From Dictyostelium discoideum (taxonomy: Eukaryota), in NCBI GenBank assembly GCA_000004695.1, contig CM000151.3, positions 2,400,001-2,464,000 on the forward strand: a stretch of 64,000 nt of DNA, given 5' to 3'. The first letter of the stretch is position 1; each line of letters begins with the position of its first letter. Both the position numbers and the translations under genes were made by a program. The notes below the pieces were generated by a model, which saw nothing but the letters and a program-made list of their open reading frames with translations, was not told where the DNA came from and did no database searches. Shown here piece after piece: positions 3,701-60,418 of the stretch.

Positions 3701-4860
3701 ATTTTACGATTCCCTTAACACCAACAGAAACACCAACAGAAACACCAACAGAAACACCAACAGAGACACCAACACAAACACCAATACCTACATCATCACC
3801 AATACCAACGAATAAACCACAAACATGTTTAGGTGAACCAGTATGTGGTGGATCAAAACAAGGTTTTTGTTCATCAAGTGGATGTATTTGTTATCCACCT
3901 TGGATTGGTAATGATTGTAATTCACAAGTTATAATTATACCACAACCATCAACAAATACATCACAACCATCAACTGAATTACCAATTATAGAAAACAATA
4001 ATCAAACATCAAATAGTACAAATTATTTATTCAAATCATTGATTTCAATTGTATCATTAAGAGAATTAGATTTTAATTCAAATCAAGTTAATTTATATAC
4101 ATTTGATAAATGGATTTATACACCAATTAATAATATTAAAAGTCAATACTTTACAAGTATTCAAAGTGGTGATACAAAATCAACAAATACATTAACAACT
4201 AATATTACTGTAACTTTAGAATGGTTCAATCAAACGACAATCATTCAATTTGCAAATAATAATATAACAATGAATCCATCAAGTATTAAATATACAATTG
4301 AAATTACAGAATATAAATTTTTAAATCAATTAAATAGTCTTCAACTTGTAATGTCAGCATTATTCGAATCATCAAATTCCAAAGATACTTGTTCATTAAA
4401 AGAATTTGGAGATACAAGTGATGGTGATAATTCAAACTTCTTTAAAATTCAAATTGATGACCATTCACTTTATGGTAGATTCATTAAAAGAGCAATCATC
4501 GATTCAAAAGTATCTTCAATTGAAAATCAATTATTAGATTCAAAAATGAACTCAATTCAAACATCATCAGTATCACAATCATTCATTGGTATTACAATAC
4601 CAAATTATAAACAATCAATAATTATTGATCCAGACTTTTCAGTATTAGTAGATAGTAAACCAGTATCAAATAATGATAATAATTCAATTTGTACATCAAA
4701 TAAATCAAAACTAACAAGTGCTCAACTCGCTGGTATTATTATTGGTTCCGTTGCTTTTGCCACTGTAGTTATTGTATCAGTTGTTTACTTGGTCGTGAAA
4801 AACAGAAAATCAGATTTATTCCAAAGAAAAGTACAAAACAAATTACAAAAAATGAACTGA
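265..4860 (+). CDS. Tandem paralog 1 of a large type-I membrane glycoprotein family (signal peptide, NxS/T-rich ectodomain, Thr/Pro linker, EGF-like Cys module, single TM helix, short basic tail); 5 exons, ~1396 aa
   Basis: ORF-track pieces 265-669, 798-1082, 1295-1513, 1524-1907, 1954-4860 join through short AT-rich GT..AG introns. Exons are ~265-658, 781-1074, 1164-1454, 1573-1872, 1952-4860, and every junction is phase 1. Donors are gtttgt/gtaagt/gtaatt; acceptors are atag/cag/tatag. N-term MIRKRILLLILIIIVIL is a signal-like peptide. The C-term is AGIIIGSVAFATVVIVSVVYLVV followed by KNRKS. The Cys module CLGEPVCGGSKQGFCSSSGCICYPPWIGNDC is EGF-like. The junctions fit the same model in copies 2 and 3. 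Confidence 0.6.
3718..3777 (+). repeat. Coding 12-bp tandem repeat (acaccaacagaa x4, then variants) giving PTETPTETPTETPTETPTQTP in the mucin-like linker; copies 2 and 3 have only DPTPTQTP here
   Basis: The unit repeats directly in the sequence. It encodes the TETP x4 segment of ORF 1954-4860. The corresponding linker in ORFs 10638-13313 and 16065-18740 is shorter. Confidence 0.8.
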
Positions 4861-5346
4861 TCAGTTAATTTAATTCAAATATTCTAATTAAAAATCTTGG
4901 AAAATAAAAATTATTATTTTTTTTATTAATTTTTAAAAATTTCTTTATGCATTTACTTATTATTTATTTGTCTTTTCTTATGTATATGTAAAAAAAAAAA
5001 TTTCTACTGTAGTGGTTCAACAAAAAAAAAATTAAAAACAAATTAATTAGGTTTACCCACACATTTATTATTTATTTGAAATTATTAAAATTTTTCCAAT
5101 ATTTAAAAATGATGATGTTTAAATTTTTTTATTTTTATTGTTGTTGAAGTGTTAATAAATATTAAACCATTCCTAATGTCATAGTGTATAGATAGATTTA
5201 TATTCTCTCCAATCTTTGGCACAGGATCGTTTGGTAGGTTTATCAGGTTTAATAGTTTTAACAGTTCAACATGTTTAACAGACTGGAAATAAAAAATCTT
5301 CCAATTGAAATTTATTTATTTTATTTTATTTTATTTTATTTTGTTT

Positions 5347-7040
5347 TTATTCATTAAGTTTCATTTCATATAATTTAGCAATATCATCTTCATAATCAGA
5401 AGCTTTTTCAGCAGATTTTTCACAATTAACTTCATTTACATCTTCACCCTTTGAATTTTTAGGTTCAATTTGTTGAACCACTTGAGTCAACTCATCAAAT
5501 TCATCGCTGATTGTTGAGTAACCTTCAACAAATTCTCGTTCACAAGAATTGGAATCATCGAGTAAATTATCAAAGAATTGACCATCGATAAAAGTGTTGA
5601 AAAGTTTTAAACAGTTTGTTTCTTTGGTATGTTTTTTGACAATATTTAATATTTTGGCAATGCCCTCCAAATAGTAATAAAAAGAATTTTTTCGAGCTTT
5701 AGATGCTGAATAATTCTGTTTCAAACATTCAAGACAATCGTTCTGTATTAAGTAAGGCAATTGCAGAGTTGAGAGTATAATTGATTTAATGTCAACTAGT
5801 AATGATGTTGATCTTTTAGAACAAAACATTTGGACATTAGGTAATATCACTGGTGATTCATTCCAAAATAGAGATAGTGTACTCAATTAAGGTATAGTAT
5901 TACATTTGATAGAAATATTGAAAACTCATTCAAAGAAATCACTAGTTTCAAATGTAGCTTGGGTCATTAAAAATCTATGTCGTGGTGTACCACGTACTGA
6001 ATTTAGACTCGTTAAGCCACTATTACCATCAATAAAGAGTTGCTCTTAACTTGGCATAAAGAAGCTGATGTCATATCAGAAGCATTGTGGGCATTATCAT
6101 GCTTGACCGAATCAACCAATGAAGAGCATGAGATCTTTGACAATATTATATCTATGGGATTGGTTGAGGTTATCATTGAAATCATTTTCGAATCAGATCA
6201 AAAAGATTGTATTAAATACGGATTCAATACAATTGGTAATATGCTTTCAGGTTTCTATGACGTTATAGAGTATTTGTTACAATGTAATGTATTGAAAGTG
6301 TTTCCTAAAATCTTATCATCACCATCAGAAGCATTGGTGACGTGAGGTTATTATTTTTTATTATATATTACCAATGGTCCAACAGATCAAGTCCAAAGAG
6401 TCATAGACGAATGTTTGCTTAAAAGAGCTATTGAAACCGGTAAAAACTCATCGATCAATTTAAGAACAAAACTTGAAGCCACCTGCGCTATTGCTAAGGC
6501 TATCTGTGGTGCCTCAACTCTGCAATTGCCTTACTTAATACAGAATTATGAATTTCATTCCCTACAATATAATTTGTATGTTTTGAAGATCCTGATGCAA
6601 CATTTGTTAATGCCCATGATGCTTCGTATTGAATTGAAGTATCTGTTTCATCAACTAAATATCTATGTAAAATTAGTACTAACCCTGAACTAATAACTCT
6701 ATCAATTTGTGGATTATTATCTTTTTTTTATAATAAATAATAAAAAAAAAAAAAAAAAAGTCATTTAAAAAAAAAAAGTCAATTTAAAAAAAAAAAAGTC
6801 AATTAAAAAAAAAAAAAAATAAAAATAAAAAACTTACCATCAGATAAAATTTCTCTAACACATTTAACTGCTTCATATCTTTCTTGTCTATTTGGTGATG
6901 AAATATTTTTAAAAATTAAATAAAATTTATCATTTTGAGTATATATATATAATTAATAAAAATTAATTATTTAAACAAATTGAAAAAATAAAAAAATAAA
7001 AAAAACTTACTAAGGTATTTTGATGTAATGATTCATCGAT
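5347..7040. pseudogene. Importin-alpha (karyopherin-alpha, ARM-repeat) like gene remnant with a rearranged order and internal stops
   Basis: + strand 5790-6350 encodes ARM-repeat motifs: ...IWTLGNITGDSFQNRD (ARM2-like), VSNVAWVIKNLCRG (ARM3-like), EALWALSCLTESTNEEHEIF...IGNMLSG (ARM4-6-like, ORF 6040-6345), with stops and frame changes. - strand 6720-6560 encodes IQYEASWALTNVASGSS (ARM1-like). - strand 6900-6840 encodes NISSPNRQERYEAVKCVREILSDG (IBB-proximal). - strand ORF 5886-5347 encodes a C-terminal-like tail. The ARM1 part is inverted relative to ARM2-6. Confidence 0.45.
5741..6553. repeat. 33-bp perfect inverted repeat (ctcaactctgcaattgccttacttaatacagaa) at 5741-5773 (reverse complement) and 6521-6553 (direct), bracketing the inverted ARM2-6 segment
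   Basis: Direct comparison of the two loci. Both arms translate to STLQLPYLIQN, in - ORF 5347-5886 and in + ORF 6415-6693. Confidence 0.7.
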
Positions 7041-7149
7041 ATGGTGTATGTGTCAAAATATTTTTAAAATTATGGATTTAAAAAAAAAAAAAAAAAAAAT
7101 TATTTGAAAATATTTTTTTTTTTTTTTAAATATTAAATTTTTTATTTTT

Positions 7150-7495
7150 AAATCTTAATAGGAGTTGATAATATAATTTATTTCAATTATAATGATACTC
7201 AGGCCACAGTGATCTTCAGCTACATTCTCACTTTTTATTTTAAATAGTAGTAATACAGATATGATCTAATATATATTTCAATAGTTTCAAAAAATCAAAT
7301 TAAATTTACAGTTCTTACAAATACTAGACCTGATCCACTCAGTTTCTTTTTAATTAGTACTTATCAATCTTCAATAACAAATGATATGTTTCCTTTATCA
7401 TCACAACTATTAATTGTTTCTAAACATTTCAATGAATATGGACCAATATTGACTATGGCGGTTATTATAGCGGATATTCAAGCGAATCACTTATA
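7150..7495 (+). pseudogene. Relic fragment of the membrane-glycoprotein family with an internal ~0.7 kb deletion and stops
   Basis: 7150-7440 matches copy-2 exon 5 around 10875-11190 (SVDNIIYFNYN.TQ...KFTVL.NTRP.PLSFFL...DMFPLSSQL..VSKHF.EYGPI). It then jumps directly to ggcggttattatagcggatattcaagcgaatcact (GGYYSGYSSESL), which is copy-2 ~11860. It has no start codon and does contain in-frame stops. Confidence 0.55.
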
Positions 7496-7977
7496 AAGGA
7501 AATTCCTTTATATAACAAAGGAAAATAATAATGAAAAAAAAGATATTAATATTTAAAATTAATTTAATATTTTTTATCATTTTTATTATAATATCAACAA
7601 ATAATTTTATTTTATTATTCTCTGTGTATTGGTGATTTTTTTTTTTTTTTTTTTTTTTTATAAATTAAAATTCATTGTTCCATAATTTAAATTAAATAAA
7701 GAAATTTATTGTGCATTTTAAAATTAAAATAAATAAACATATTTATTATTTTTTATTGTTTATTGTTTATTGTTTATTACTTTAAAATTAAAATTCTTTA
7801 TTTGATAATATAAATATAACTACTTTACATTTAAATAAACCTATTGATTGATTTTTGTTTAATCCTTTAAATTAAAACTCTTTATTTGGTAATTTAATTA
7901 AAAATGAATAACTGCTTTATATTTTTTTATATTATATTATTTTTTTTTTTAAATTTTTTTATTTTTTTTCTTTGTTT

Positions 7978-8011
<34 letters not shown>

Positions 8012-8276
8012 TTTTTTAAAAAATATATTTTACTAAAATTTTTCAAAATTAATTATTAAAAAAAGGCACAATAGAAAATTCAATAACCAAAATTTTTTTT
8101 TTTGATTTTTTTTATTATATTTTTTTATTTTTTTATTTGGCTAAATTATTACTAAACAAAAAATGGTATACATTTGTAGAGGTTGTAATCAACCTAAAAA
8201 AGAACAATGTCAATGCAAACAACTACTAGCAACATTAGGAACACAACAAAAACTAATACAAGCACAACAACAACTA

Positions 8277-8390
8277 ATACAACAACAAAATCCAAACACA
8301 AATCATATTATGCCAAGTCTTCAATCTGATGAATTCACAACTAATACAACAAAATCCAAACACAAGTCATATTATGCCAAGTCTTCAAGC
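8277..8390 (+). repeat. ~48-bp direct repeat x2 (aatacaacaacaaaatccaaacacaa(a/g)tcatattatgccaagtcttcaa) separated by 18 bp
   Basis: Seen directly in the sequence. It lies inside the low-complexity ORF 8163-8393, which has no other gene support. Confidence 0.5.
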
Positions 8391-8532
8391 TAATGGATTT
8401 ATAACAACTAAACAAGGTATTTTGGACTAAATAAACAAAATCTTCAACAAATAAAACATAAATGATTTTATTCCAGATCCAACTCTACCAAACAAATTTT
8501 ATGTTAGTATTAGAAATTAAATAAATTAAACA

Positions 8533-8580
<48 letters not shown>

Positions 8581-8697
8581 GTACCATTTATAATGTGTTT
8601 GTTGGGATCAAAAAAAAGAAATAAAAAATAAAAACAATGAAATTTTGTTGTGAGGTAGTCTTGAAATTCAAAAAATATTTTTTTTAATTTTTTTTTT

Positions 8698-8757
8698 AAA
8701 ATATCTTTTTATAAATATCTTTTTATAAATATCTTTATCAAATCGTAAAAAAAAAAA
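8698..8757 (+). promoter_or_regulatory. Conserved upstream element: (AAATATCTTTTT)x3 followed by CAAATCGTAAAAAAAAAA, ~55 bp upstream of the copy-2 ATG
   Basis: A nearly identical element at 14044-14100 precedes the copy-3 ATG, with x2 of the first box. A related aaaatatctattttt box at 20581-20595 precedes copy 4. aaaatatctttgg sits in the palindrome loop upstream of copy 5. Confidence 0.4.
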
Positions 8758-8809
8758 TGGGGAACGTTTTTTTTTTTTTTTTTTTTATTTTTTTTTTTAA
8801 AAAAAAAAA

Positions 8810-11800
8810 ATGATAAAGAAAATTTTATTAATAATCCTAACATTGGTGATAATAAATAGCTTTTCAACAATAAATAATTTAATAATTGGGGTTGAAGGAC
8901 AGTTTCAATTGTATGATATTACAAATCAAGAAGAAGGTGCTTATAATAGATACCCAGATTCAACAAATCAAAAAATTTGTTCATATGTTTTTTCGATTGC
9001 AATAGTTGATTACTCGAATAGTGGGGCAACTTTGAATGTTTTCACCAATGATACAGATGCAATGGTCTATCAAATCATTAGGAAAGAATATGGAGGAATT
9101 GCCACAGTTATAGTTAAAAATAAAACACCAAATACTTATACATTATTAATAAATGCAACATTGCAAAATGGTCAAAATATTTATAAGAATATCTCAATAA
9201 CTTATTCTTGTGAATGTTTGTATATAAAATTTAAAATTAAAAAAACAAAAATAAATAATTAATTAATTTCAATACCAATTTTATATAGATATCCCTCGAG
9301 AATTGATGAAGGTCAATGTTTTAACAAGTAACAATTATAAATTTACAATTAATCCTTATACAACATTAATACACTTTACAGGTTTAAAATATCAAATATC
9401 TTATCTAAATGTTTCAAGTCCTTCTTGGATAAACATAAATAATTTTTATTCAAATTTATTATATGTTAGTGTAGATTTTAATAAATATAATTTTGTACCA
9501 GAGTCTAATATATCAATACTTTTCTTGGATAGTTCAGATCAACAATATACTGTGAATATTACAATTCCTTTTTTTTATTTTTCAAGTAAGTATAATAATT
9601 AAATTTAAAAAAAAAAAAATAAGATATTAAAATTATTATTATTATAAGAAATGAATGTAGAAGAAAAGGATATTACATTCAAGATCTATCCAAACCAAAC
9701 CGATGTTACAGTACTTGGAGTTAATTGTTCACCAGTTTACTCTATTACATTAAATGAAACCATTGAATATGATCCATTATTTATTGAAGATGTTTCACGT
9801 CGTATGCCTACTCCATCATATGAAATACCAGGAAAAGGTACAACATTCATTGGTTATGTTTATACACAATATTCTATTTTCGCACAAATTAATAACTCAT
9901 TAACAACAATTTATAGTAACCCAAATTTAAATGTTTCAAGTAAGTTTTTTAAAATTAAATTCAATTACTTTTTAATATATACATATATCAAAGATTAATT
10001 TCTATTGACATTATTTAAAAAAAAATGAATAGAAAACTTTAATTTTACATTTCCAAATGTCATTGTTGAACCAGTATCATTACCTTTAATATTAAACTCA
10101 ACAATGTTTTCATTTGGGTTCACTTCAAGTTTTCAGTATGCAATTTTTCCATTTTATTTTAGATGGAATTTAGGTTTTCAATATATCTTTAGTTGGCCAT
10201 TTGGGTTTGAAAGTGGTCAAAATTCAAACTATTCTTTAAAAGTATCATTTTTAAAACCCACGTATTCGCCAAACAATTTTGGTTTATTGACCTTTAATAA
10301 TGAAAATTTTATTATTCAAATAGACAATAGTAAGTATATATACATATAATCATTAATATTCTAATATACATATATAATCATTAATATTCTAAACTACTAC
10401 TGAATAACACACACACACACCCCACACACAAACAAGTACTAACATTAAAAAATATTTTTAAAAATAGCGATAAATTCATCATTACTACCATTAGAATTAG
10501 AATCATGTAAAGTTATATACCTTTTTGAACAATTTCATTTATTAATAATTAAAATAAAACCAACATATAAAGAGATTGGTTATAATCTTTTCATTCAAAT
10601 TAATGATGATGCAAATGCAATATATAGACAAGAATCATTGGTAGATGCTGAAAATAATATATATGAAATTGTTTATGATTTTAAAGGGCGTGGATTTTCA
10701 GTTTTATCTATTGGAGATTCAACTTTTAAAAAGAGTCAAGTTTATTATGTAAATAGTTATTTTTCAATTAATCCATTTTCAGTTATAGATTATAAAGCTC
10801 CAACAATATTACCTGTTTTAATAGAAAATATTACATTTTTAAAAAATTATATTGATGTGGCAAATAAATCAGTTGATAATATAATTTATTTCAATTATAA
10901 TGGTACTCAAGCCCATAGTGATCCTTCAGCTTCATTCTCACTTTTTATTTTAAATAGTAATACCACAGAATCTAATATAGTTTTCGATAGTTTAAAGTTT
11001 GCAACTTGGAATTCAACAATTTCAAAATATCAAATTAAATTTACAGTTCTTGCAAACACTAGACCTGGTCCACTCAGTTTCTTTTTAATGTGTGGTTATC
11101 AATCTTCAATAACAAATGATATGTTTCCTTTATCATCACAACTATTTATTGTTTCTAAACATTTCGATGCGTATGGACCAATATTTAGTAATATTGAAAA
11201 AATTAATTCACCAAATGAATTTGGTTGGAAATTTACAATAGATGATCCAATTAATGGTTTTGATTATGGTGATATTATAGTGAGAGGTGAAATGGATAGT
11301 TCAACTTATAAATTCCATTTAACAACTCAAAATTTAACAAGAGGTGATAAATTTAATGGTGATTATCAAATTAATATAACTTTACCAAGTAAATGTGCAT
11401 CTCAAAATTATATTATCACACAAGTTAAATTATATGATACTCAAGGCTTTTCAGGTGAATTTTATGTAGTTGGTGAAATGGATGGTATTAAAAATGTATT
11501 TATAAATTATTTATCAGATCCAACAATAAATAAAGTATATAAAACATGTAGTGGTGAAAATGATGGTATCGATAGTTCACCACCAATTTTAACTTCATTC
11601 ATACCAATATTAAAACAAAATAGTGATGGTACTCAATACTTATCATTCAACTTTGAAGCAGTAGATATTGAAAGTGGTTTAAAAGATAAACAATATCCAG
11701 TTGTTTATATTGAAACAATAGAAGTACAAACACTTGAATGTGTATCATCTATTATTTCAATAAACGAAACAGCTGCAACCTATACATGTACTATCGATTT

Positions 11801-14043: not shown

Positions 14044-14048
<5 letters not shown>

Positions 14049-14100
14049 TATCTTTTTTTAAATATCTTTTATTAGCTCAGCAAATCGTAAAAAAAAAAAA
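14044..14100 (+). promoter_or_regulatory. Copy-3 instance of the AAATATCTTTT...CAAATCGTAAAAAAAA upstream element
   Basis: Matches 8698-8757 upstream of copy 2. Conservation between the copy-2 and copy-3 intergenic regions indicates a recent tandem duplication that included the promoter. Confidence 0.4.
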
Positions 14101-23378: not shown

Positions 23379-25625
23379 GAATCTACAGATTTCGATGGAT
23401 ATGGACCAATATTTAGTAATATTGAAAAGGTTAATTCAACAAATGAATTTGGTTGGAAATTTACAATAGATGATCCAATTAATGGTTTTGATTATGCTGA
23501 TATTATAGTTAGAGGTGAAATGGATAGTTCAACTTATAAATTCCATTTAACAACTCAAAATTTAACAAGAGGTGATAAATTTAATGGTGATTATCAAATT
23601 AATATAACTTTACCAAGTAAATGTGCATCTCAAAATTATATTATCACACAAGTTAAATTATATGATACTCAAGGTATTGGTTGCTACTTTTCAGTATCTG
23701 AATCATTTGTAGGTGGTGGTGTTAATAACCCATTTATAAATTATTTATTAGACTCAACAATAAATAAATTATATAAAAAGTGTAGTGGTGAAAATGATGG
23801 TATCGATAGTTCACCACCAATTTTAACATTATTTACACCACAAGTAGCTATTCCTGCAGATGGACATATGGAAGTATATTTCTCATTTGAAGCAACTGAT
23901 TACGAAAGTGGATTAAAAGATCTTCAATATCCAATGGTTTACGTTGAAGCAATTGAATTTCAAATATTTGAATGTGAAACAATTATTAAATCAAAGAATA
24001 TCACCTCTGCAACCTATCAATGTTACGTTTACTTACCAAGAGGTGTATTGTACACTTCAGAAATTACATTCAGTGTTTATGGATTAATTAATAATGGTGG
24101 TTGTTATGGTGGTTATTCAAGCGACTCACTAAGAATTCTATTCCCGTATAAGTTTTCAATGAAAGCAGTATCATCAGGACTTGCTAAAAGGTTAGATATC
24201 TATAGAGTTTCTCAAATTACAACAAGTGGTGGCGAATTATGGATAATAGGTGCTGGTTTCTTTTCTTCAAATCTTGTAGTATTAATTAAATATTATGGTG
24301 AATCAACATTTACACAAACATCAATACCAACTATAAGTTATCCAAATGCAATGTTAATCAATGATGTCAAACCAACTGATAAACCATTCATTATCAAAGT
24401 ACAAGAAGCTTTCTTTTCAAATGAATTCACTGTTTATCCATTAGTATTTGATATTCGTTTTGTACCACCAATTCCAACAGAATTACCAACAGAATCCCCA
24501 ACACCAAATCCATCATCATCATCTTCTTCAATAGACTCGTCATCGTCAACACCTACATCATCACCAATACCAACGAATAAACCTCAAACATGTTTAGGTG
24601 AACCATTATGTGGTGGATCAAAACAAGGATATTGTTCATCAAGTGGATGTGTTTGTTATCCACCTTGGATTGGTAATGATTGTAATTCACAAGTTATAAT
24701 TATACCACAACCATCAACAAATACATCACAACCATCAACTGAATTACCAATTATCGATAACAATAATCAAACATCAAATAGTACAAATTATTTATTCAAA
24801 TCATTGATTTCAATTGTATCATTAAGAGAATTAGATTTTAATTCAAATTAAGTTAATTTATATACATTTGATAAATGGATTTATACACCAATTAATAATA
24901 TTAAAAGTCAATACTTTACAAGTATTCAAAGTGGTGATACAAAATCAACAAATACATTAACAACCAATATTACTGTAACTTTAGAATGGTTCAATCAAAC
25001 AACAATCATTCAATTTGCAAATAATAATATAACAATGAATCCATCAAGTATTAAATATACAATTGAAATTACAGAATATAAATTTTTAAATCAATTAAAT
25101 AGTCTTCAACTTGTAATGTCAGCATTATTCGAATCATCAACTTCCAAAGATACTTGTTCATTAAAAGTATTTGGAGATACAAGCGATGGTGATAATTCAA
25201 ACTTCTTTAAAATTCAAATTGATGATCATTCACTTTATGGTAGATTCATTAAAAGAGCAATCATCGATTCAAAAGTATCTTCAATTGAAAATCAATTATT
25301 AGATTCAAAAATGAACTCAATTCAAACATCATCAATATCACAATCATTCATTGGTATTACAATACCAAATTATAAACAATCAATAATTATTGATCCAGAC
25401 TTTTCAGTATTAGTAGATAGTAAACCAGTATCAAATAATGATAATAATTCAATTTGTACATCAAATAAATCAAAACTAACAAGTTCTCAACTCGCTGGTA
25501 TTATTATTGGTTCCGTTGCTTTTGCTGCTGTCGTTGTTGTTGCAGCTTCTTATTTTATTATAAAAAAGTGGAAAGACGATAAATTTGTAAAAACATTTAA
25601 TAGAAAATTAAAAAAACTATCATAA
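20797..25625 (+). pseudogene. Divergent paralog 4 of the membrane glycoprotein family; 6 exons, including an extra intron absent from copies 1-3; the open frame is interrupted by a single in-frame TAA at 24849-24851 upstream of the TM helix
   Basis: Exons ~20797-21187, 21266-21544, 21671-21985, 22065-22367, 22525-23247, 23389-25625. The junctions are phase 1 and the lengths fit a continuous frame. ORF track: 20797-21207, 21283-21573, 22148-22393, 22680-23261, 23520-24851, 25035-25625, with the last two in the same frame. aattcaaatTaagtt aligns to aattcaaatCaagtt (Q, NSNQVNLYTF) in copies 1-3. The tail is AGIIIGSVAFAAVVVVAASYFIIKKWKDDKF... Confidence 0.55.
23248..23388 (+). other. Paralog-specific intron (gtaagt...(att)n...tctacag) inside what is continuous exon 5 in copies 1-3
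   Basis: Copy 4 reads ...QLYVTLS | NFDGYGPIFSNIEKVNSTNEF. Copies 1-3 read ...QLIIESKHFDEYGPIFSNIEKVNSTNEF without a break. The donor is ttatcaa|gtaagt and the acceptor is tctacag|atttcgat. The intron contains an (ATT)~29 microsatellite at 23293-23378. Confidence 0.6.
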
Positions 25626-26554
25626 TTAACAAATAAAAAATACTGTGTATTAATTTTTTAAAAGTTTATTCCTTTTTAAAAGGAGTAGTTTAAATAAAGA
25701 TTTTTAAATAATTAATTTTTTCTATGGAATTATTTAAATAAAATTTTTAAAAAAAATATATTTAACTAGTGGATTTTATTTATTTTTAAATTGTTTTAAT
25801 TGTCTTAGAGTTTTTTTGAATTACTTTTTTTAAAAAATAAGAAAGAAACTGATACAATAACAACACAACAGATAATTCATTTGAAAAGAATTTTGAATTT
25901 TCTTGTACTTTGATAATGAATGGTTTTTCAGTTGGTTTGACATCATTAATTAACATTGTATTTGGATAAATTATAGTAGGTATTGATGTTTGTGTAAAGG
26001 TTGATTCACCATGATATTTAATTAAGACTACAAGATTATTTCATTTAATTTTTTTGTATCTACTCTATGCAAAATAGTATTTAAAAAAAAGAATTGATGT
26101 TAAGTTGGTGGTAAATTAAAATTTCTTTGTATGCTGGAAATTGAGATTCTCTAACTTTTTAATTTGAAATTATAATTGGTATAATAATAAAACTTGGGAA
26201 ACTTAATTTTAATTATCTATATGTTGAATGAATACTTTAACATCAGCCTCACTTAAATACTTCCCAGAGGTGGTAAATTTGGTGTTGATTGCAATTAATT
26301 ATTAAAAAAAATTTTTTTTTTTTTTTTTTAAAAAATATTTACTAACATAATCCACTTTTCAATTTCATAAACCAATTTCATTTTTTTAAATCTGACAACA
26401 CTGTTTAAAACTTTTTGATTGCCAAACTCTTTTTCTATATGGTTACCAAAAATCAAAGTGAGTGGTCCATGATTTTTTTAACATTATGGGTACAGTTTAT
26501 TTTGAGCATTAAAATAACAGCAGTAATGTACTCGAATTTGAAACCAATTAATTT

Positions 26555-27560
26555 TTAAGATAATGGAAATTGTGTGATAGTTTGAAATTCGAATAAATTT
26601 AATTTGGTTGCCATAGTGTTTAAGTCAATAACAGGAAGGATGATTTTAAAATTACCATTACCTTTACTATTTTGTGTGATGATGTGACCGCCATATGATA
26701 ATTCTTGGATTGATTTACCACATATACAATAACATAATAATGTTTCCAAAGTTTCATCATTGAAGCCACCAATTCTCATTCTTTGAATACGTTTTTTGAG
26801 TGAAAATCCAAATTTGGATACCATTTGAATTGAAACCGATTCATTTTCTATATCTATCAATGCATCTGAACCGTAACTATTAAAATGTTCTCTTTGTTTT
26901 ATTGAATTAAAATGATCATCTAAATCAGATATCAAATATTCCAAGTATCTTGGAACAATACCAAGATCGATAACCATTATTTTAAAAAAATTATTATCTA
27001 ATTGTGGAAAATATTTAACATTATTTTTAATTTTTAATTTTGATGACTCATATGATAATGGTTTAATATTTATATTCTCTATCTCCCATTTTGATAAAAC
27101 GATCTCTAATGAATCGGAATTGGTTCCAGTTAAAAATGGTATGATGAAAATATTGTTATTGTGTGCGTTTGATTTATTAATTTTATTACCTGTACATTTG
27201 AATGTTCCTAATGCCTATATCATTTTTTTAACGAAATTATCATATTGACTACCAAATCCTTTTGCATATTGGTGTGCCATTTGAAATTCATCAATATGAA
27301 TGAAAATTGCTAATGGTTTGGTTTGATCAGTTCTATTTTTTACAATATTCAGTAACGTATCATTTAAATTAAATAATTTATTTTCATTTCCATTTAATTT
27401 ATTTAATTTTGAATTAGAAAAAGAAAGACCTAAAACTGATCTTGAATAACCTTTTACATAATACAATTTCATCTGAATGATTTAAATCTTCAGCAACTAA
27501 AGCATCACCTCCACCATTGAAATCCATTGATATGAAAATACATTCTTTCATTATATCATT
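26555..27560 (-). pseudogene. Disrupted gene of unknown function with a Walker-B-like motif (LAIFIHIDEFQ), possibly P-loop NTPase-like; it has a frameshift and an in-frame TAG
   Basis: - strand ORFs 27472-27215 and 26977-26555 are in the same frame and separated only by TAG at 27217-27215 (FVKKMI*ALGTFKCTGNK...). Upstream, MKECIFISMDFNGGGDALVAEDLNHSDEIVLCKR lies in the +1 frame. There is no acceptable GT..AG intron around the stop. Confidence 0.35.
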
Positions 27561-28373
27561 TAATGATACATAAAAAAAGGTTGGGAAATTTTTTATTTTT
27601 CACCAAAAAAAAAAAAAAAAAAAAAAAAAAATGAATACATACTCGAACAGGGTTTAACTAAATCTTGAGTTATATGTTCTTTTTTTTGAATGCTTTGAAA
27701 AAGTGAGGGTAAATCTAAAACTTTTATTTTAATTAGAACAAGGTTATTTATATTTTAAAAATTTAAAAAATTTTTACTTACTTGGGTAAACACTTTGAGG
27801 AGCTATTTCTGGAAATTTTTCATTGGACTCAACATACTTAAAACTTTTATAATCGGAATGTGTGAGAAAAATTTTGATAAATCTTGGATCAAAATTTAAT
27901 TTTTCGCCAATTAAAACTTGAAAAGAGTAATAGTAATTTATTTTATCTTTAAATCAAATAGTGAAAGTAAACTCTTTATTATTTTTACATAAATGTAATT
28001 AAAGTTTCATTTTTCATTTGTAAATAAAAAATAATAATAAAGGGGGAAATAATTAATAGAGTTTTTATAAAAAAAAAAAAAAAATTAATATTGTGCGTTT
28101 TTAGCAAATTAATTGTTGAAGGGAATTTTTTTTGAAATTTCGCTTTCTAAACGGTGTACACTAAAAAAATTCACCCAAGTCAAACAAAAAAAAAAAAAAA
28201 AAAAATAAAAAAAATAAAAAAAGGGTTTAAACTCACTATAAAATATTAAAAAACTTTCCAAGTTAATCATTATGAATATTTATTTGTTTTTAATTTTAAA
28301 AATTTAAAACTACACAATAAAAATGTTTTATACTAAAATTTCTTTGAAAATAAAAAAAAATTTATTTATTTTA

Positions 28374-28377
<4 letters not shown>

Positions 28378-28443
<66 letters not shown>
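28378..28443 (+). repeat. (ATT)n microsatellite (~22 units)
   Basis: Seen directly. It translates as poly-I in spurious ORF 28323-28520. Confidence 0.9.
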
Positions 28444-28445
<2 letters not shown>

Positions 28446-29220
28446 AGTTTTATTGTTTATTTTATAAACAAATTACCTTTGGATGAAAGGAACAACTCTA
28501 ACAAATTTTTAATTTTTTAGGATATCCTGGGCATGGTTGGCATGGTGTAGAACCCCTTCTTTTTTGGCTGGTGCAATTGCTATTGAGTTTGTGATTACAA
28601 TATAGTTTGGTTGAGTCCATTATAAAATTGAGGTATGTTTAAATATATAAACGAAAATGATATTAATAAATAATAAATAAATAATAAATAAATAAAATAA
28701 ATATGAAAAAAAAAAAATAATAGATAAATAAAATATGAGTGAATAAAATAATTAAAGTTAAAAAAAAAAAAATCTATTTAAATACTTAAAATATTTCATT
28801 GCAACCGAGTTAATATATTTTTGATCAAAGATTTTTTTTTTATTTTATTTTTATTTTCTTTTTTTAATTTTAAAAAAAGTGGGGGAAAATATCTCCAACT
28901 GTTTTTAATTTAATATAATTTGATTTTTTTTTTTTAATTTTCTTTTTATTTCAAAAAAAGGGTAATGTTTTACAGTTAAAAAAAAAAAAATTCACTCATT
29001 ATTTTAACCAACTATAAATAAAATGAAATACAATTGTTCATTTATAAAAACTATGGCCATTATAATATTAAACCATCACATCTATATTTTTGGTTAAAAT
29101 CAAATGATCATTTTTTATTTTAAATAAAAAAACCACTTTTAGTTTATAATAATAAAAACAATTTAAAAAACATAATTAATAAAACCAAAATAATAATATA
29201 ATTAATTATACATATAATAG

Positions 29221-29440
29221 TAATAGAAATAGAAATATTAATATCAATAGTTATAGCAATAGCTATATAGTAGTAATGGTAATAGTAATAATATAATAGT
29301 AATAACAGTAATAGCAAGAGCAATATAGTAGTAATAATAGTAATAATAGTAATAGCAATAGCAATATAGTAGTAATAATAGTAACAATAGTGATAGCAAT
29401 AGCAATATAGTAGTAATAATAGTAATAATAGCAATAATAT
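29221..29440 (+). repeat. Minisatellite: ~42-bp unit (agcaatagcaatatagtagtaataatagtaataatagtaat, with variants) repeated ~4-5 times in tandem
   Basis: Seen directly. It gives antisense poly-Y/L/I pseudo-ORFs 29144-29468. Confidence 0.7.
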
Positions 29441-29906
29441 AATGAAACCTAAAAGAATGAATGCTCATTTTCTTCTAGAGGTATTATATTTTATTATTTT
29501 AGATTGAATATAAATATTTGTACTAATTTTTTTTTTTTTTTTTTTTTTTTTTTTCTCTAATTAAAAACAAAAAACTGTTCATTGGATTTTATCGCCAAAA
29601 CCTAAACTTCTGGTCTGAAAAAAAAAAAAATCAATACCAAAAGGTGAAAAAAGAAAAAATAATAAAAAAAAAAAAAATAATAAAAAAAAAAAACAAATAA
29701 AAAAAAAAAATAAAAAAAAAAAGTGTTTGATTTGAAAAATTTAAAAAAAAATATTAAAAAGTGTTTGGTTTGGCCAATCCGCACAATAAAAAAAAAAAAG
29801 GGGGGAAATTTAAATAGAGTTTTTTTAATTTTCTATTAAACATTTTAACAAATTTATCATCTTTCCACTTTCTTATAAAAAAAGTAACTACAATTTATTA
29901 AGCTGA

Positions 29907-34759
<4,853 letters not shown>

Positions 34760-34828
34760 TTTCTATTTGACTGATAATAACAATAATAAAAACAATATGC
34801 ATTATTTTTTTTTTTTTTTTCGTCATGT

Positions 34829-34948
34829 CAATTTTAATGTTTTCAATAATAATCACTCTTTTGATTTTTTTTTAATTTTTTTTTTATTTTAAAATATCTT
34901 TGGCATTAAAAAAAATCAAAAGAGTGATTATTATTGAAAAAATTAAAA
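34829..34948. promoter_or_regulatory. ~43-bp inverted repeat (1 mismatch; perfect 29-bp core caataataatcactcttttgatttttttt) with a ~36-bp loop containing aaaatatctttgg, 70-190 bp upstream of the copy-5 start codon
   Basis: Arms 34845-34873 and 34909-34937 are exact reverse complements. The extended arms gtcaattttaatgttttcaataat / attattgaaaaaattaaaattgaaatg differ at one position. Confidence 0.6.
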
Positions 34949-35525
34949 TTGAAATGAATTAAATTAATTGTCAGATATTTATTTTTTTTTTTTTTTGTGC
35001 AGTCAACTAAAAATAAAAAAAAGATATTTTTAAAAAATCATGATTGTTGAAATTGGTGGTTTTATTTGGATTTTCATTTTTTTTTTTAAAAATAAAATAT
35101 AATACTATTATTATTTTATTGTAAAACATTATTTAAATTCTATTATATGTTTAGTGATGTGGAGGAAAATGAAATGAAAATGAAATTTTAAAAAAAAAAA
35201 AAAAATAATTAATATTTTCATTTTTGAAAATAATTTTATTACTATGGCATTTTGAAAAGAAGATGATATCATTTATAAATTAAAAACTAGAAATTAAAAA
35301 ACTTAAAAAAATAAAATTAAAAAAGGTTAATGAAATATATATTTTTCATTATTGTTTAAAAAATCAATTTAATTAATATAAAAAAATTAAAAAAAATATA
35401 TTTAATACTGGTATATTTGTTTTTTAGATATTTATTTTGAAATTAGATTTTTTTTTTTTTTTTTTTTGATTTTTTTTTAATTTTTTTTTTTTTTTATTAT
35501 TTTTTAATGTTTCAATAAAGTGAAA

Positions 35526-37553
35526 ATGGTTTCAAATAATGATGATTTATTTTTTAAAATTTTTAGAAATCAATATATTAATAGAGAAATATTTAATAAA
35601 GTTAAAGAATATAATAAGAAATTAAAATATATCAGATATAATTATTATGATTTACCTTTAGAATTAATAATAAAAAAAAAAAATCAACAATTATTTGTAG
35701 AAAAATTAAAAGATTTTTTAAAACTTAAAAATGAAATAAAAGAGAATGGATTCACCAAAGAAAATCAATCAAATGTACATAAATATTTTATTAGATTTGA
35801 TGAAGGGCAAATATTACTTTTATTAGGATGGAAAGAATTGGATTTAGAATCATTTGATCTTTATTTAAGAATATTTGAAAATGAAATTAAAAATCGGAAT
35901 GAAATAACATTATATATTAACCCCAGTGGTTTTGAAATATGTGATGATAAATTCATACACTTTTTAGAAAAAAAAACATTTAGAAAATTAATTAAATTTG
36001 ATAATATCGTTGCCTTTGTATATAGAGGGGTTCATTCAATAAGATTATTAAATTATTTTATTGATAATTGTAAAGATTTAAATAGTGATGCTTTAAAAGA
36101 TTTAAATAATCTATATACTATATTTTCATTGTATTATTCAAATGGGAAAAATGAAGATTTAAAATACGAATATCTAAAGAGAATAAAAAGGTCAAATCAA
36201 TATTTTTCACGTTTAAATTCCTTTACAAGATTTATTGAAGATGCAATAAGAAATGAAGATTTAAAAATGTTAAAATCGCTACTTTCTCTTTTTAAATATG
36301 ATAAAAAACAAACCAATCCAACAGATCACCATCCAGATGATATAGTTACAATATTGGATATTCAAATTTCAATTAAAATATTAGAGCAATTAAAAATTAG
36401 TATTAATTCATTTAGAGGAAATGATAAATTATTACCATTTTATAAAATTTTAATAGAACGAGTATACTCTTCAAATAACTATTTCAAAAAAGAACAAAAA
36501 AAGAGACTTACAATAGCCTCAATAGAGTTTAGAAATTATGCAATTGACAAGATGTTAAATAATGGCTTCTATGCCAGTGATGAAAGAATGTTTGAAAATA
36601 TTTCATTCGCTTCAAATTGTATAAATGATGATGATCCAAACAATCTTTCAGAATATGATAAATTATTATTAAAACCAGAGTTTTTATCAGTACTTTTTTA
36701 TAAATGTAAAATAATGAATAGAGATTTAAATTTATTCAAATTATATCTGGTTAAATTTGGATTCAACTTTGAAAAATTATTAACTATAATAGAATTAAAT
36801 TATGAAAACATGGTATCTTATGTAATTTCAAACCTTTCTGAAATTGTTTTAAATCGATATTTAGATTTAATTGATTTTTCATTACCATCAAATGAAAGTG
36901 AAGGTTATGATTTTGTTTTTAATTTAGTTTTACCATTGTTAACTTTTGAAGAAACATTATCACTACACGAAAAAATTCAAAGCATCAAATTACCTTTCAA
37001 CTCTGAAAGAAGAAGAAAATTCATTTTAAAATCATATGAAATTGAATCAAAAATTGATGAAATTAATAGAAATAAAATCAATCAAAGATTTTTAAAAAAT
37101 TTTCTTAATAGAAAAGAAATTTTAATTGAAATTTGTAATAGCAAAACACTAACTGATTTAATATTTTGTAATTTAAAATCAGAGAATTTTAAAACAATTA
37201 AAAAAATTAAAAAACTTTGTTTTATCATTGATAAAACTTTATTAGCTAAATTTATTTGTTCAATTTATTGTGATTATTCAAAATCACTTTTATACTTAAT
37301 TCACATTCTAGATATTAATAATATTAATGATAATGATAATAATAATAATATAACAATTCCACAATCCATCTCCTCAAAATTTTCAAGTTTCGAAATGGCA
37401 ATGGGCCAAAGTATGCAGTATTTTTTATTAAATTTAAAATCAAGCTATGATGAAGAAAAAGATGGCCAGATGGTAACTGTAGACATTCAACCCCCAACAA
37501 AAAGTAATAATTATAATTTTATCAAAAAAGCACTATCATTTTTAAAAAAGTAA
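35526..37553 (+). CDS. Intronless hypothetical protein (~675 aa), Asn/Lys/Leu-rich, with no recognisable domain
   Basis: ORF 35520-37553, first ATG at 35526 (MVSNNDDLFFKIFRNQYINREIF...). The 2-kb frame is uninterrupted and codon usage is typical of AT-rich coding sequence. Confidence 0.5.
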   Translation: MVSNNDDLFFKIFRNQYINREIFNKVKEYNKKLKYIRYNYYDLPLELIIKKKNQQLFVEKLKDFLKLKNEIKENGFTKENQSNVHKYFIRFDEGQILLLLGWKELDLESFDLYLRIFENEIKNRNEITLYINPSGFEICDDKFIHFLEKKTFRKLIKFDNIVAFVYRGVHSIRLLNYFIDNCKDLNSDALKDLNNLYTIFSLYYSNGKNEDLKYEYLKRIKRSNQYFSRLNSFTRFIEDAIRNEDLKMLKSLLSLFKYDKKQTNPTDHHPDDIVTILDIQISIKILEQLKISINSFRGNDKLLPFYKILIERVYSSNNYFKKEQKKRLTIASIEFRNYAIDKMLNNGFYASDERMFENISFASNCINDDDPNNLSEYDKLLLKPEFLSVLFYKCKIMNRDLNLFKLYLVKFGFNFEKLLTIIELNYENMVSYVISNLSEIVLNRYLDLIDFSLPSNESEGYDFVFNLVLPLLTFEETLSLHEKIQSIKLPFNSERRRKFILKSYEIESKIDEINRNKINQRFLKNFLNRKEILIEICNSKTLTDLIFCNLKSENFKTIKKIKKLCFIIDKTLLAKFICSIYCDYSKSLLYLIHILDINNINDNDNNNNITIPQSISSKFSSFEMAMGQSMQYFLLNLKSSYDEEKDGQMVTVDIQPPTKSNNYNFIKKALSFLKK

Positions 37554-46573: not shown

Positions 46574-46839
46574 AAAAAAAATAACATATACATAAATATA
46601 TATAAAAAAAAAAGGTAATAAAATAAATAAATAAAAAAAAAAAAAGTATTTTTTTTTTTTTTTAAAAAATATTAATATTTTCTTTAAAATATTAATATTT
46701 TAAAGAATTACATACATGTAATTGCACGACCTATTGTGGATTTATCCTTGATGGTTTAATATCAGCTGTTGAAGGAGATGCTTTTTTTAATTGTAGTAAT
46801 AGTAATAATTGTGTTTTTAGCCAAAATGTTATTAACCAA

Positions 46840-57617: not shown

Positions 57618-58002
57618 TTTATTTATTATTTGGTTATTTTTTATTATGAAACAATATTTTTTTTTTTTTTTTTTTTTGTTTTTTGTTTTTCAATTTATTT
57701 AAATTAAAATGAAAATGAAAATGAAAATTTCAATTTTAAAATCCTTATTTATAGTTTAATTTTAATATGAGGTTTTATTTTTAAAAAAAAAAAATAAAAA
57801 AAAAAAAAAAAATAAAAAAAAAAAAAAAAATAAAATAAAATAAAATAAAACAAAGTTTATTTTAAAGGTTATATATCATGTTCTATGGATCTTTTTTTAT
57901 GAAAAAAATTTCTAAAATAATACAAATATATATTTTTAGTAATCTTCCATTTTTGTTAAAATAAAAAAAAAATAATAAAAAAAAAAAAAAAAAAAATTTA
58001 AA

Positions 58003-58058
<56 letters not shown>

Positions 58059-60204: not shown

Positions 60205-60247
<43 letters not shown>

Positions 60248-60318
60248 TTAATATTTTTTCAACAAAAAAAAAAAAGAAAAAAATAAAAAATAGATTCTTA
60301 CTCATATTCTTTACTCAT
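59564..60318 (-). CDS. Rab-family small GTPase (Rab1-like), 3 exons, 193 aa, with a non-canonical C-terminus ...SPEKNNCIIN
   Basis: - strand exons 60318-60302 (atg agt aaa gaa tat ga|gtaaga), 60210-60161 (E)HLFKFVLAGDSGVG|gtaaat, and 60078-59564 (K)TSILFRITDDTFTETHITIGIEFKIKTVYIEGKPIKLQIWDTAGEKRFR...YDVTDQRSFENV...IIGNKNDL...SAKQSINIEEAF...CIIN*. P-loop GDSGVGKTS, DTAGE, NKxD and SAK motifs are present. ORF track 59564-59755. Confidence 0.65.
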
Positions 60319-60372
60319 TTTAATTGTATTTTATAAAAATTATATTACATTTTTTTTTTCTTGAACCAAAAA

Positions 60373-60418
<46 letters not shown>

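Follow-up and report, generated by a model that had tools for sequence, protein, structure and literature searches.

The ComC locus and its promoter palindrome

The window under study, a stretch of 64 kb from D. discoideum chromosome 2 with a GC content of about 22%, contains five paralogues of the ComC family, whose start codons lie at positions 265, 8810, 14215, and 20797 on the plus strand and at 34759 on the minus strand. The last of these genes, copy 5 (29907–34759, minus strand; ATG at 34757–34759), is predicted to encode 1408 aa in the gene call of a second assembly (L001, GCA_054883475.1), and its product carries the Pfam domains ComC_SSD, DUF7034, DUF7035, and DUF7949. Upstream of copy 5 extends a divergent intergenic region of 766 bp, beyond which a plus-strand open reading frame (35526–37553; 675 aa) begins that is 100% identical to DDB_G0272903 of D. 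discoideum AX4, which gene is in turn identical to DDB_G0273953 as a result of the chromosome 2 duplication; in the literature searched we found no mention of either locus. Farther to the right, the minus strand between 49299 and 55638 holds several open-reading-frame fragments with cytochrome P450-like heme-binding motifs, suggesting a small tandem cluster of P450 genes.

Within this intergenic region there is a large, nearly perfect palindrome, which a preliminary description of the same DNA had recorded as two arms of 43 bp with one mismatch and a perfect core of 29 bp, ending at 34948 and lying 70–190 bp upstream of the copy-5 ATG. The palindrome did not figure among the top 25 entries of a general inverted-repeat listing, and we established its arms by direct comparison, which procedure reproduced the 43-nt arms with their single mismatch (34829–34871 and 34909–34951). 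The end at 34948 was accordingly 3 nt short, and the symmetry was found to continue outward to 34823–34872 and 34908–34957, thus yielding arms of 50 nt with two mismatches (34827 with 34953, and 34839 with 34941) around a spacer, or loop, of 35 nt (34873–34907). The perfect core, whose existence was upheld, had been underestimated, since it measures 33 nt (34840–34872 pairing with 34908–34940); the upstream location likewise stood, with the distance from the ATG at 34759 revised to 64–198 bp. A tract of 16 T residues (T16; 34805–34820, plus strand) abuts the left arm.

A structure of this size had been thought unusual even for AT-rich DNA, an opinion that our statistics bear out. In the 64-kb window the palindrome is the sole long inverted repeat that is not homopolymeric, the other long ones pairing poly(A) with poly(T); its score as a complex inverted repeat was 42, against 14 for the next one in the real window and a maximum of 16 in 14 order-3 Markov simulations of 64 kb. 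The 29-mer of the core occurred at the two arms only (0 occurrences being expected), and no further copy with up to 3 mismatches was present in the 64-kb window. As single-stranded DNA the palindrome folds with −41.9 kcal/mol, compared to −15.3 ± 2.5 kcal/mol for shuffled sequences (z = −10.8), so that the AX4 locus has gained the potential for a very stable hairpin; for the minus-strand RNA the corresponding values are −52.2 kcal/mol and z = −13.7, which figures express a folding potential only. Among the other inverted repeats of the window, the very long poly(A)/poly(T) tracts at 57778–58057 and 60211–60415 form low-complexity inverted pairs, which in a naive inverted-repeat scan surpass everything except the palindrome, and a perfect 14 + 14 palindrome with zero spacer (46680–46707) adjoins a complex insertion of 64 nt (46705–46768) that is specific to AX4 relative to its relative L002.

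The L001 assembly, which is independent, shares 99.7% identity with the window across 10 kb and shows no difference at all in the whole 766-bp intergenic region; the palindrome is therefore not an artefact of assembly.

The loop of the palindrome contains a AAAATATCTTT box (34891–34901, plus strand), which is oriented opposite to the ComC gene. Two further copies of the AAATATCT core follow on the minus strand, in the same orientation as that gene: the second, within GTCAGATATTT, at 34973–34980 and the third at 35022–35029, both of them conserved. The statement that the loop motif is also found upstream of the other copies proved correct, all five ComC genes having it. In the window, AAATATCT occurs 27 times versus the 12.0 ± 3.6 expected, which count was reached in 0 of 100 shuffles, and 10 of those occurrences are situated at −83 to −270 of the five ComC ATGs, with at least one per copy. 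Tandem boxes at an exact spacing of 14 bp were observed upstream of copy 2 (three boxes, 8699–8734) and of copy 3 (two boxes, 14046–14067). The box may resemble the evening element of plants. Its appearances in the Dictyostelium literature that we searched were only incidental, primer-like matches, with no described factor; the SHAQKY MYB protein MybE, when considered as a candidate, was discarded because its reported consensus, AAC(a/t)GTT, does not match the box.

The orthologous promoters in related lineages

We located the orthologous loci through the single-copy neighbour DDB_G0272903 in two diverged lineages: one represented by L002 and L004, both designated D. discoideum, whose neighbour protein has about 92% amino-acid identity to that of AX4, and the other by L003, designated D. 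cf. discoideum, with 84%. The pairwise identities of the neighbour protein (92% for P0001–P0002, 84% for P0001–P0003, and 84% for P0002–P0003) give the tree ((AX4, L002/L004), L003), with which the intergenic identities agree (0.89 for AX4–L002, 0.73 for AX4–L003, and 0.75 for L002–L003). The comparison thus comprises three independent lineages, with the polarity of the changes depending on L003 as the single outgroup. A second D. cf. discoideum strain (L005, GCA_054859235.1) was uninformative, since its orthologue of DDB_G0272903 lies among other genes, none of them a ComC gene—there (1–22010) it adjoins PRP8 and a retrotransposon pol gene instead of the ComC array—which difference indicates that the synteny here varies even inside the D. 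cf. discoideum lineage.

Every lineage aligned has orthologous counterparts of the loop, its box, the right arm, and the GTCAGATA that follows downstream, the loop having the same orientation in all of them and the right arm (34908–34957) being the ancestral sequence, present in L002, L004, and L003. AAAATATCTT does not vary among the five sequences aligned, TTTTAAAATATCTT at the loop box is unchanged in five of five, and the three copy-5 boxes (34892, plus; 34973, minus; 35022, minus) stand in the same order and orientation in AX4, L002, L004, and L003. The left arm, for its part, is present in AX4 and L001, while 31–32 nt of it (34822–34852) are missing in L002, L004, and L003, with both flanks aligning; where AX4 has the T16 tract, the T-rich tract of the relatives is longer and uninterrupted. 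The alignments and an indel scan delimited a derived segment at 34822–34860, the putative target of a template switch, which segment differs from L002, L004, and L003 by an insertion of 31 nt (34822–34852) plus five clustered substitutions that run from TTTTTTTG in L002 and L004 to TCACTCTT in AX4, the relatives being T-rich there.

The derived segment matches the opposite arm: 34823–34860 is the reverse complement of 34920–34957 with two mismatches. In ungapped matching the 31-nt insert scored 0.90 against the reverse complement versus 0.65 in direct orientation, and the five substitutions adjoining the insertion also agree with the reverse complement of the right arm, so that a single event would replace an indel and five substitutions, all of them corresponding to one reverse-complement copy. 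The dinucleotide CG at the outer junction (34821–34822) is not accounted for by that copy and, as the T-run can be aligned in ways that differ by a few bases, the switch points cannot be placed exactly. In the 17.7 kb of collinear alignment between AX4 and L002 there are about 30 indels of at least 12 nt, nearly all of which are changes in the length of microsatellites or homopolymers, the palindrome insertion being the only complex one that copies nearby DNA in reverse complement.

Immediately inside the derived segment lies the left half of a 12-nt stem, TTGATTTTTTTT (34861–34872), that was already present in L002 and L004; its right half (34908–34919) is ancestral. In L002, TTGATTTTTTTT at 5469–5480 pairs perfectly with AAAAAAAATCAA at 5522–5533, and this stem is located exactly at the inner ends of the AX4 arms. 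The stem is seen in the L002 centroid fold, the region overall yielding −11.2 kcal/mol (z = +1.3), no better than shuffles.

The two arms also retain a record of the order of the changes. Both AX4 arms carry GAG where the single-copy L002 sequence has AAG, ATT where it has ATA, and an additional ATT that it lacks, and at both mismatches the left arm keeps the C of the relatives while the right arm has A, the contexts of the left-arm C being AAAACAT, as in L003, and TGACATG, as in L002, L004, and L003. This combination of shared AX4-derived states with the relatives' C in the left arm is most simply accounted for if the right arm was copied first and mutated later. The arms differ from each other at 2 of 50 positions (4%), compared with the 11–12% intergenic divergence between AX4 and L002 and the 27% between AX4 and L003.

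The synteny breakpoint closest to the palindrome is found about 250 bp farther right, at approximately 35208–35241, and is the site vacated in the AX4 lineage by a gene block of about 3.9 kb, hereinafter block X. In L002 (6155–8858), L004 (about 4386–7081), and L003 (about 7138–9732) that block is still in place, between the ComC promoter and the orthologue of DDB_G0272903, and carries the gene of a P-loop-like protein, which measures 774 aa in L002 and L004. The orthologous block of AX4 and L001, with 91–96% identity, is found inverted between copies 4 and 5 (26036–29822 of the window, minus strand), where it is split by a 1.7-kb insertion of 17% GC (28084–29785) and flanked by ComC pseudogene fragments. 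Two such fragments occur on the minus strand just downstream of copy 4 (25776–25865 and 25867–26037), the second matching copy 4 at 24270–24434 in reverse complement with 89% identity; their occurrence at the new junction of block X suggests a complex rearrangement. The flanks of block X in L002 (5942–6237 and 9673–9935) form a diverged direct repeat (about 69% identity) of sequence upstream of the DDB_G0272903 orthologue. A clean deletion of the block mediated by that direct repeat was considered and rejected, the left breakpoint being 130 bp outside the repeat.

Palindromic AT-rich repeats mediate translocations in humans, where they are proven sites of breakage. The present palindrome shares with them an AT-rich, near-perfect sequence and the capacity to form a hairpin or cruciform; the human arms, however, extend for hundreds of bp with little or no spacer, as opposed to arms of 50 nt and a spacer of 35 nt here. 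The proposal that the palindrome had served as a recombination hotspot that helped to create the convergent arrangement of copies 4 and 5 is contradicted by the presence of that arrangement in L002 and L003, which have no palindrome; nor does the palindrome mark the synteny breakpoint, the real one having arisen in the same lineage but some 250 bp away.

Origin of the left arm

We consider it very probable, from these alignments, that the palindrome arose as a single template-switch stem extension in the lineage of AX4, and it is best understood as a structural mutation of recent date rather than as an ancient element. The ancestor would have possessed a T-rich tract, the 12-nt stem TTGATTTTTTTT … AAAAAAAATCAA around the conserved AAAATATCTT box, and, to the right of these, unique sequence. 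Once the AX4 lineage had separated from L002/L004, the 3′ end of a nascent strand that had just copied the T-run or the A-run would have paired through the 12-nt stem, either within its own strand or on the sister strand; about 38 nt lying to the right (source, 34920–34957) would then have been copied in reverse complement before synthesis returned to the template. By this means about 7 nt of T-rich DNA would have been replaced by 38 nt, and the stem extended from 12 to 50 bp, without inversion of the loop, whose unchanged orientation indicates only that the spacer was not copied. Two subsequent C-to-A substitutions in the original right arm (34941 and 34953) would account for the sole two mismatches. 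The simplest history would thus be one in which the right arm is the original and was copied after having gained its AX4-specific changes; on the small numbers available, the copy would be roughly one-third as old as the AX4–L002 split, and would predate the split between AX4 and L001.

For the recognition of a template-switch stem extension we took the criterion of Monttinen & Loytynoja 2022 (PMC8794818). In the AX4 promoter, source and target occupy the two opposing halves of a single stem, at equal distances from the loop; one half of the stem gains an insertion, and a single event explains that indel together with the substitutions; complementarity already existed at the switch point, in the form of the 12-nt stem of L002; and the copy-free state is encountered both in the sister lineage (L002, L004) and in the outgroup, which latter consists of the single lineage L003.

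Mutations of this kind are already known, and the palindrome would be another instance of them. As in the cases reported by Monttinen & Loytynoja (PMC8794818) and by Walker et al. 2021 (PMC7954356), one reverse-complement copy explains an insertion and clustered substitutions as one event; those cases, however, are from RNA genes or great-ape genomes and are mostly shorter, whereas the AX4 product belongs to a promoter and is not known to have any role as RNA. The palindrome likewise shares with the template-switch mutagenesis of quasipalindromes in E. coli and yeast (e.g., PMC7202029) the perfecting of an imperfect repeat by arm-to-arm copying, but those events involve few bases and were observed experimentally in reporter genes, while ours would comprise about 38 nt and belongs to evolutionary reconstruction. 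The closest parallel is provided by the inverted repeats of yeast promoters, which expand by template switching to give arms of 10–48 bp (Rozenfeld et al. 2026, PMC13100816): upstream of SPT8 a repeat grew from 12 to 48 bp, and arms of 7–12 bp reached 24–48 bp in particular strains. There, as here, a short perfect promoter repeat became a much longer, near-perfect one in one lineage; the yeast expansions have spacers of up to 70 bp, were recognised against strains with the short form, and may carry transcription-factor sites (PMC13100816). The present example differs in coming from an amoebozoan with 22% GC and in having an arm of 50 nt, which equals or slightly exceeds the maximum in yeast, as well as in that the yeast comparison was made within a population, ours between diverged lineages and from sequence alone.

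Other histories have to be weighed against this one. The palindrome could have been ancestral, the left arm having been deleted in the L002/L004 and the L003 lineages owing to the proneness of palindromes to deletion: palindromes are known to be unstable (review, PMC7999016), the sampling consists of three lineages, and arm-to-arm gene conversion in an older palindrome could also have produced the derived states common to both arms. Yet this history would demand two independent deletions with nearly the same boundaries, a continuous arm-to-arm conversion that held the divergence at 4% versus 27% and maintained the AX4-specific states, and five further substitutions for the relatives' TTTTTTTG versus TCACTCTT; given the tree ((AX4, L002), L003), one gain is more parsimonious than two losses, and we regard such an ancestral palindrome as improbable. 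A remnant of a transposon—a MITE or foldback element, for example thug-like, or a scar thereof—is the least probable origin of all, and one to which we give hardly any credence. The shape resembles that of terminal inverted repeats, and Dictyostelium does harbour hairpin-forming thug-S copies of a DNA transposon, which are AT-rich, reside in the same genome, and in some instances yield small RNAs. An insertion, though, would have brought arms and loop together, whereas only one arm is new and lineage specific, the rest being orthologous single-copy sequence; moreover, no target-site duplication is present (the flanks read …TTTTTCG and ATTAAATT…), and no other copy with up to 5 substitutions exists in 172 kb of D. 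discoideum-group sequence. The thug-S elements are multicopy and mobile, while the palindrome is single-copy in the sequence searched and of local origin; the 29-mer had no match, either, in the metagenome contigs scanned. The suggestion of a foldback-element remnant is accordingly not sustained.

A closer relation to the neighbouring rearrangement deserves somewhat more weight, in that the arm duplication might represent one template switch within the complex replication-based event that moved block X. Both changes are specific to AX4 and L001 and stand 250 bp apart, and the junctions of block X, with their inverted ComC fragments and 1.7-kb insertion, bespeak a complex event; among the strains compared, however, none has one change alone or documents the two arising together, the intervening 250 bp align collinearly at ordinary divergence, and short-range template switches are known to occur by themselves (PMC13100816, PMC8794818). 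We consequently deem this connection unlikely, and prefer a single template switch as the source of the left arm.

The palindrome in the present-day promoter

Of the interpretation first offered for this DNA, the structure and the motif proved to be real, while the roles proposed for them were not supported. With respect to regulation, the notion of a conserved regulatory palindrome fails in that the left arm is missing in the closest relatives, which nevertheless keep both the gene and the boxes; the dyad symmetry is not conserved in the orthologous promoters of L002, L004, and L003, and in the window no comparable inverted repeat occurs upstream of the other four ComC copies. The AAATATCT box, in contrast, is a real conserved element which, judging from the alignments, is older than the palindrome, and the three boxes would be the conserved functional elements of this promoter. 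What the insertion did alter is the spacing of the loop box from the gene, its distance from the ATG having passed from 80–103 nt in the relatives to 133 nt in AX4. The motif TGACATG, too, has changed place: conserved in L002, L004, and L003 (L002 5558–5566), it reads TGAAATG in the right arm of AX4 (34945–34953) and survives in AX4 only in the new, inverted left-arm copy (34827–34835), which shift between arms could represent the turnover of a putative binding site.

A palindrome selected for cis-regulation—as the site of a dimeric or cruciform-binding regulator, or as a means of presenting the loop box on an extruded hairpin, with a change in ComC expression—would accord with its location in the promoter, around a conserved box, and with the duplication of the conserved TGACATG in inverted orientation. 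A spacer of 35 nt, though, disfavours the extrusion of a cruciform in duplex DNA, as is generally known; the structure is not conserved beyond AX4 and L001, and the four other paralogues carry the box without any such palindrome. The experience with yeast is divided, since an engineered expansion changed GRE2 expression about 4-fold, whereas the ERT1 case changed little (PMC13100816). Selection of this kind strikes us as doubtful. Still less probable is that the palindrome constitutes a gene for a hairpin RNA, transcribed as a de novo miRNA-like precursor or forming a structured 5′ UTR. The minus-strand fold cited above would suit such a gene, as would the T16 tract abutting the left arm on the plus strand, inasmuch as miRNA genes in D. 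discoideum are mostly intergenic, with poly-T tracts ahead of the start site (PMC6161686). Against this idea, an Rfam search of 34500–35600 at E-values up to 1 returned no match; the arm sequence did not appear in the text supplements of two D. discoideum miRNA catalogues (PMC6161686, PMC11014262), nor did 16-mers of the arm, in DNA or RNA spelling, in the literature full text searched. Furthermore, the positions in the paralogues suggest that the box lies upstream of the start site of transcription, and if the loop box acts from there, the hairpin would not be wholly included in the ComC mRNA. A stem extension by template switching with either no effect or a modest one in cis on the promoter of this ComC paralogue is thus what the palindrome probably represents.

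We would nonetheless mention, as a speculation to which we assign little likelihood, that the template switch may at one stroke have rewired the promoter of a single ComC paralogue or, alternatively, that a transcribed hairpin may be a newborn small-RNA locus. Were the rewiring true, an inverted, TGACATG-containing copy would have been placed about 130 bp nearer the gene while the original site decayed by C-to-A substitution, the proximal AAATATCT box would have become enclosed in a 50-bp stem, and the consequence would be a paralogue-specific change of expression in a cell-communication gene family of AX4-type strains.

With the relatives as reference, the conserved part of this promoter—the three AAATATCT boxes, common to the ComC paralogues—becomes separable from the new part, the palindrome, and large, perfect palindromes near genes call for a similar check in related strains before being considered regulatory or mobile. 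The locus provides a clean and dated example, in a very AT-rich amoebozoan genome, of how one template switch would turn a 12-bp stem into a near-perfect promoter palindrome of 50 bp; and if that palindrome altered the expression of its gene, the evidence from yeast for the evolution of promoters by template switching would extend to Dictyostelium.
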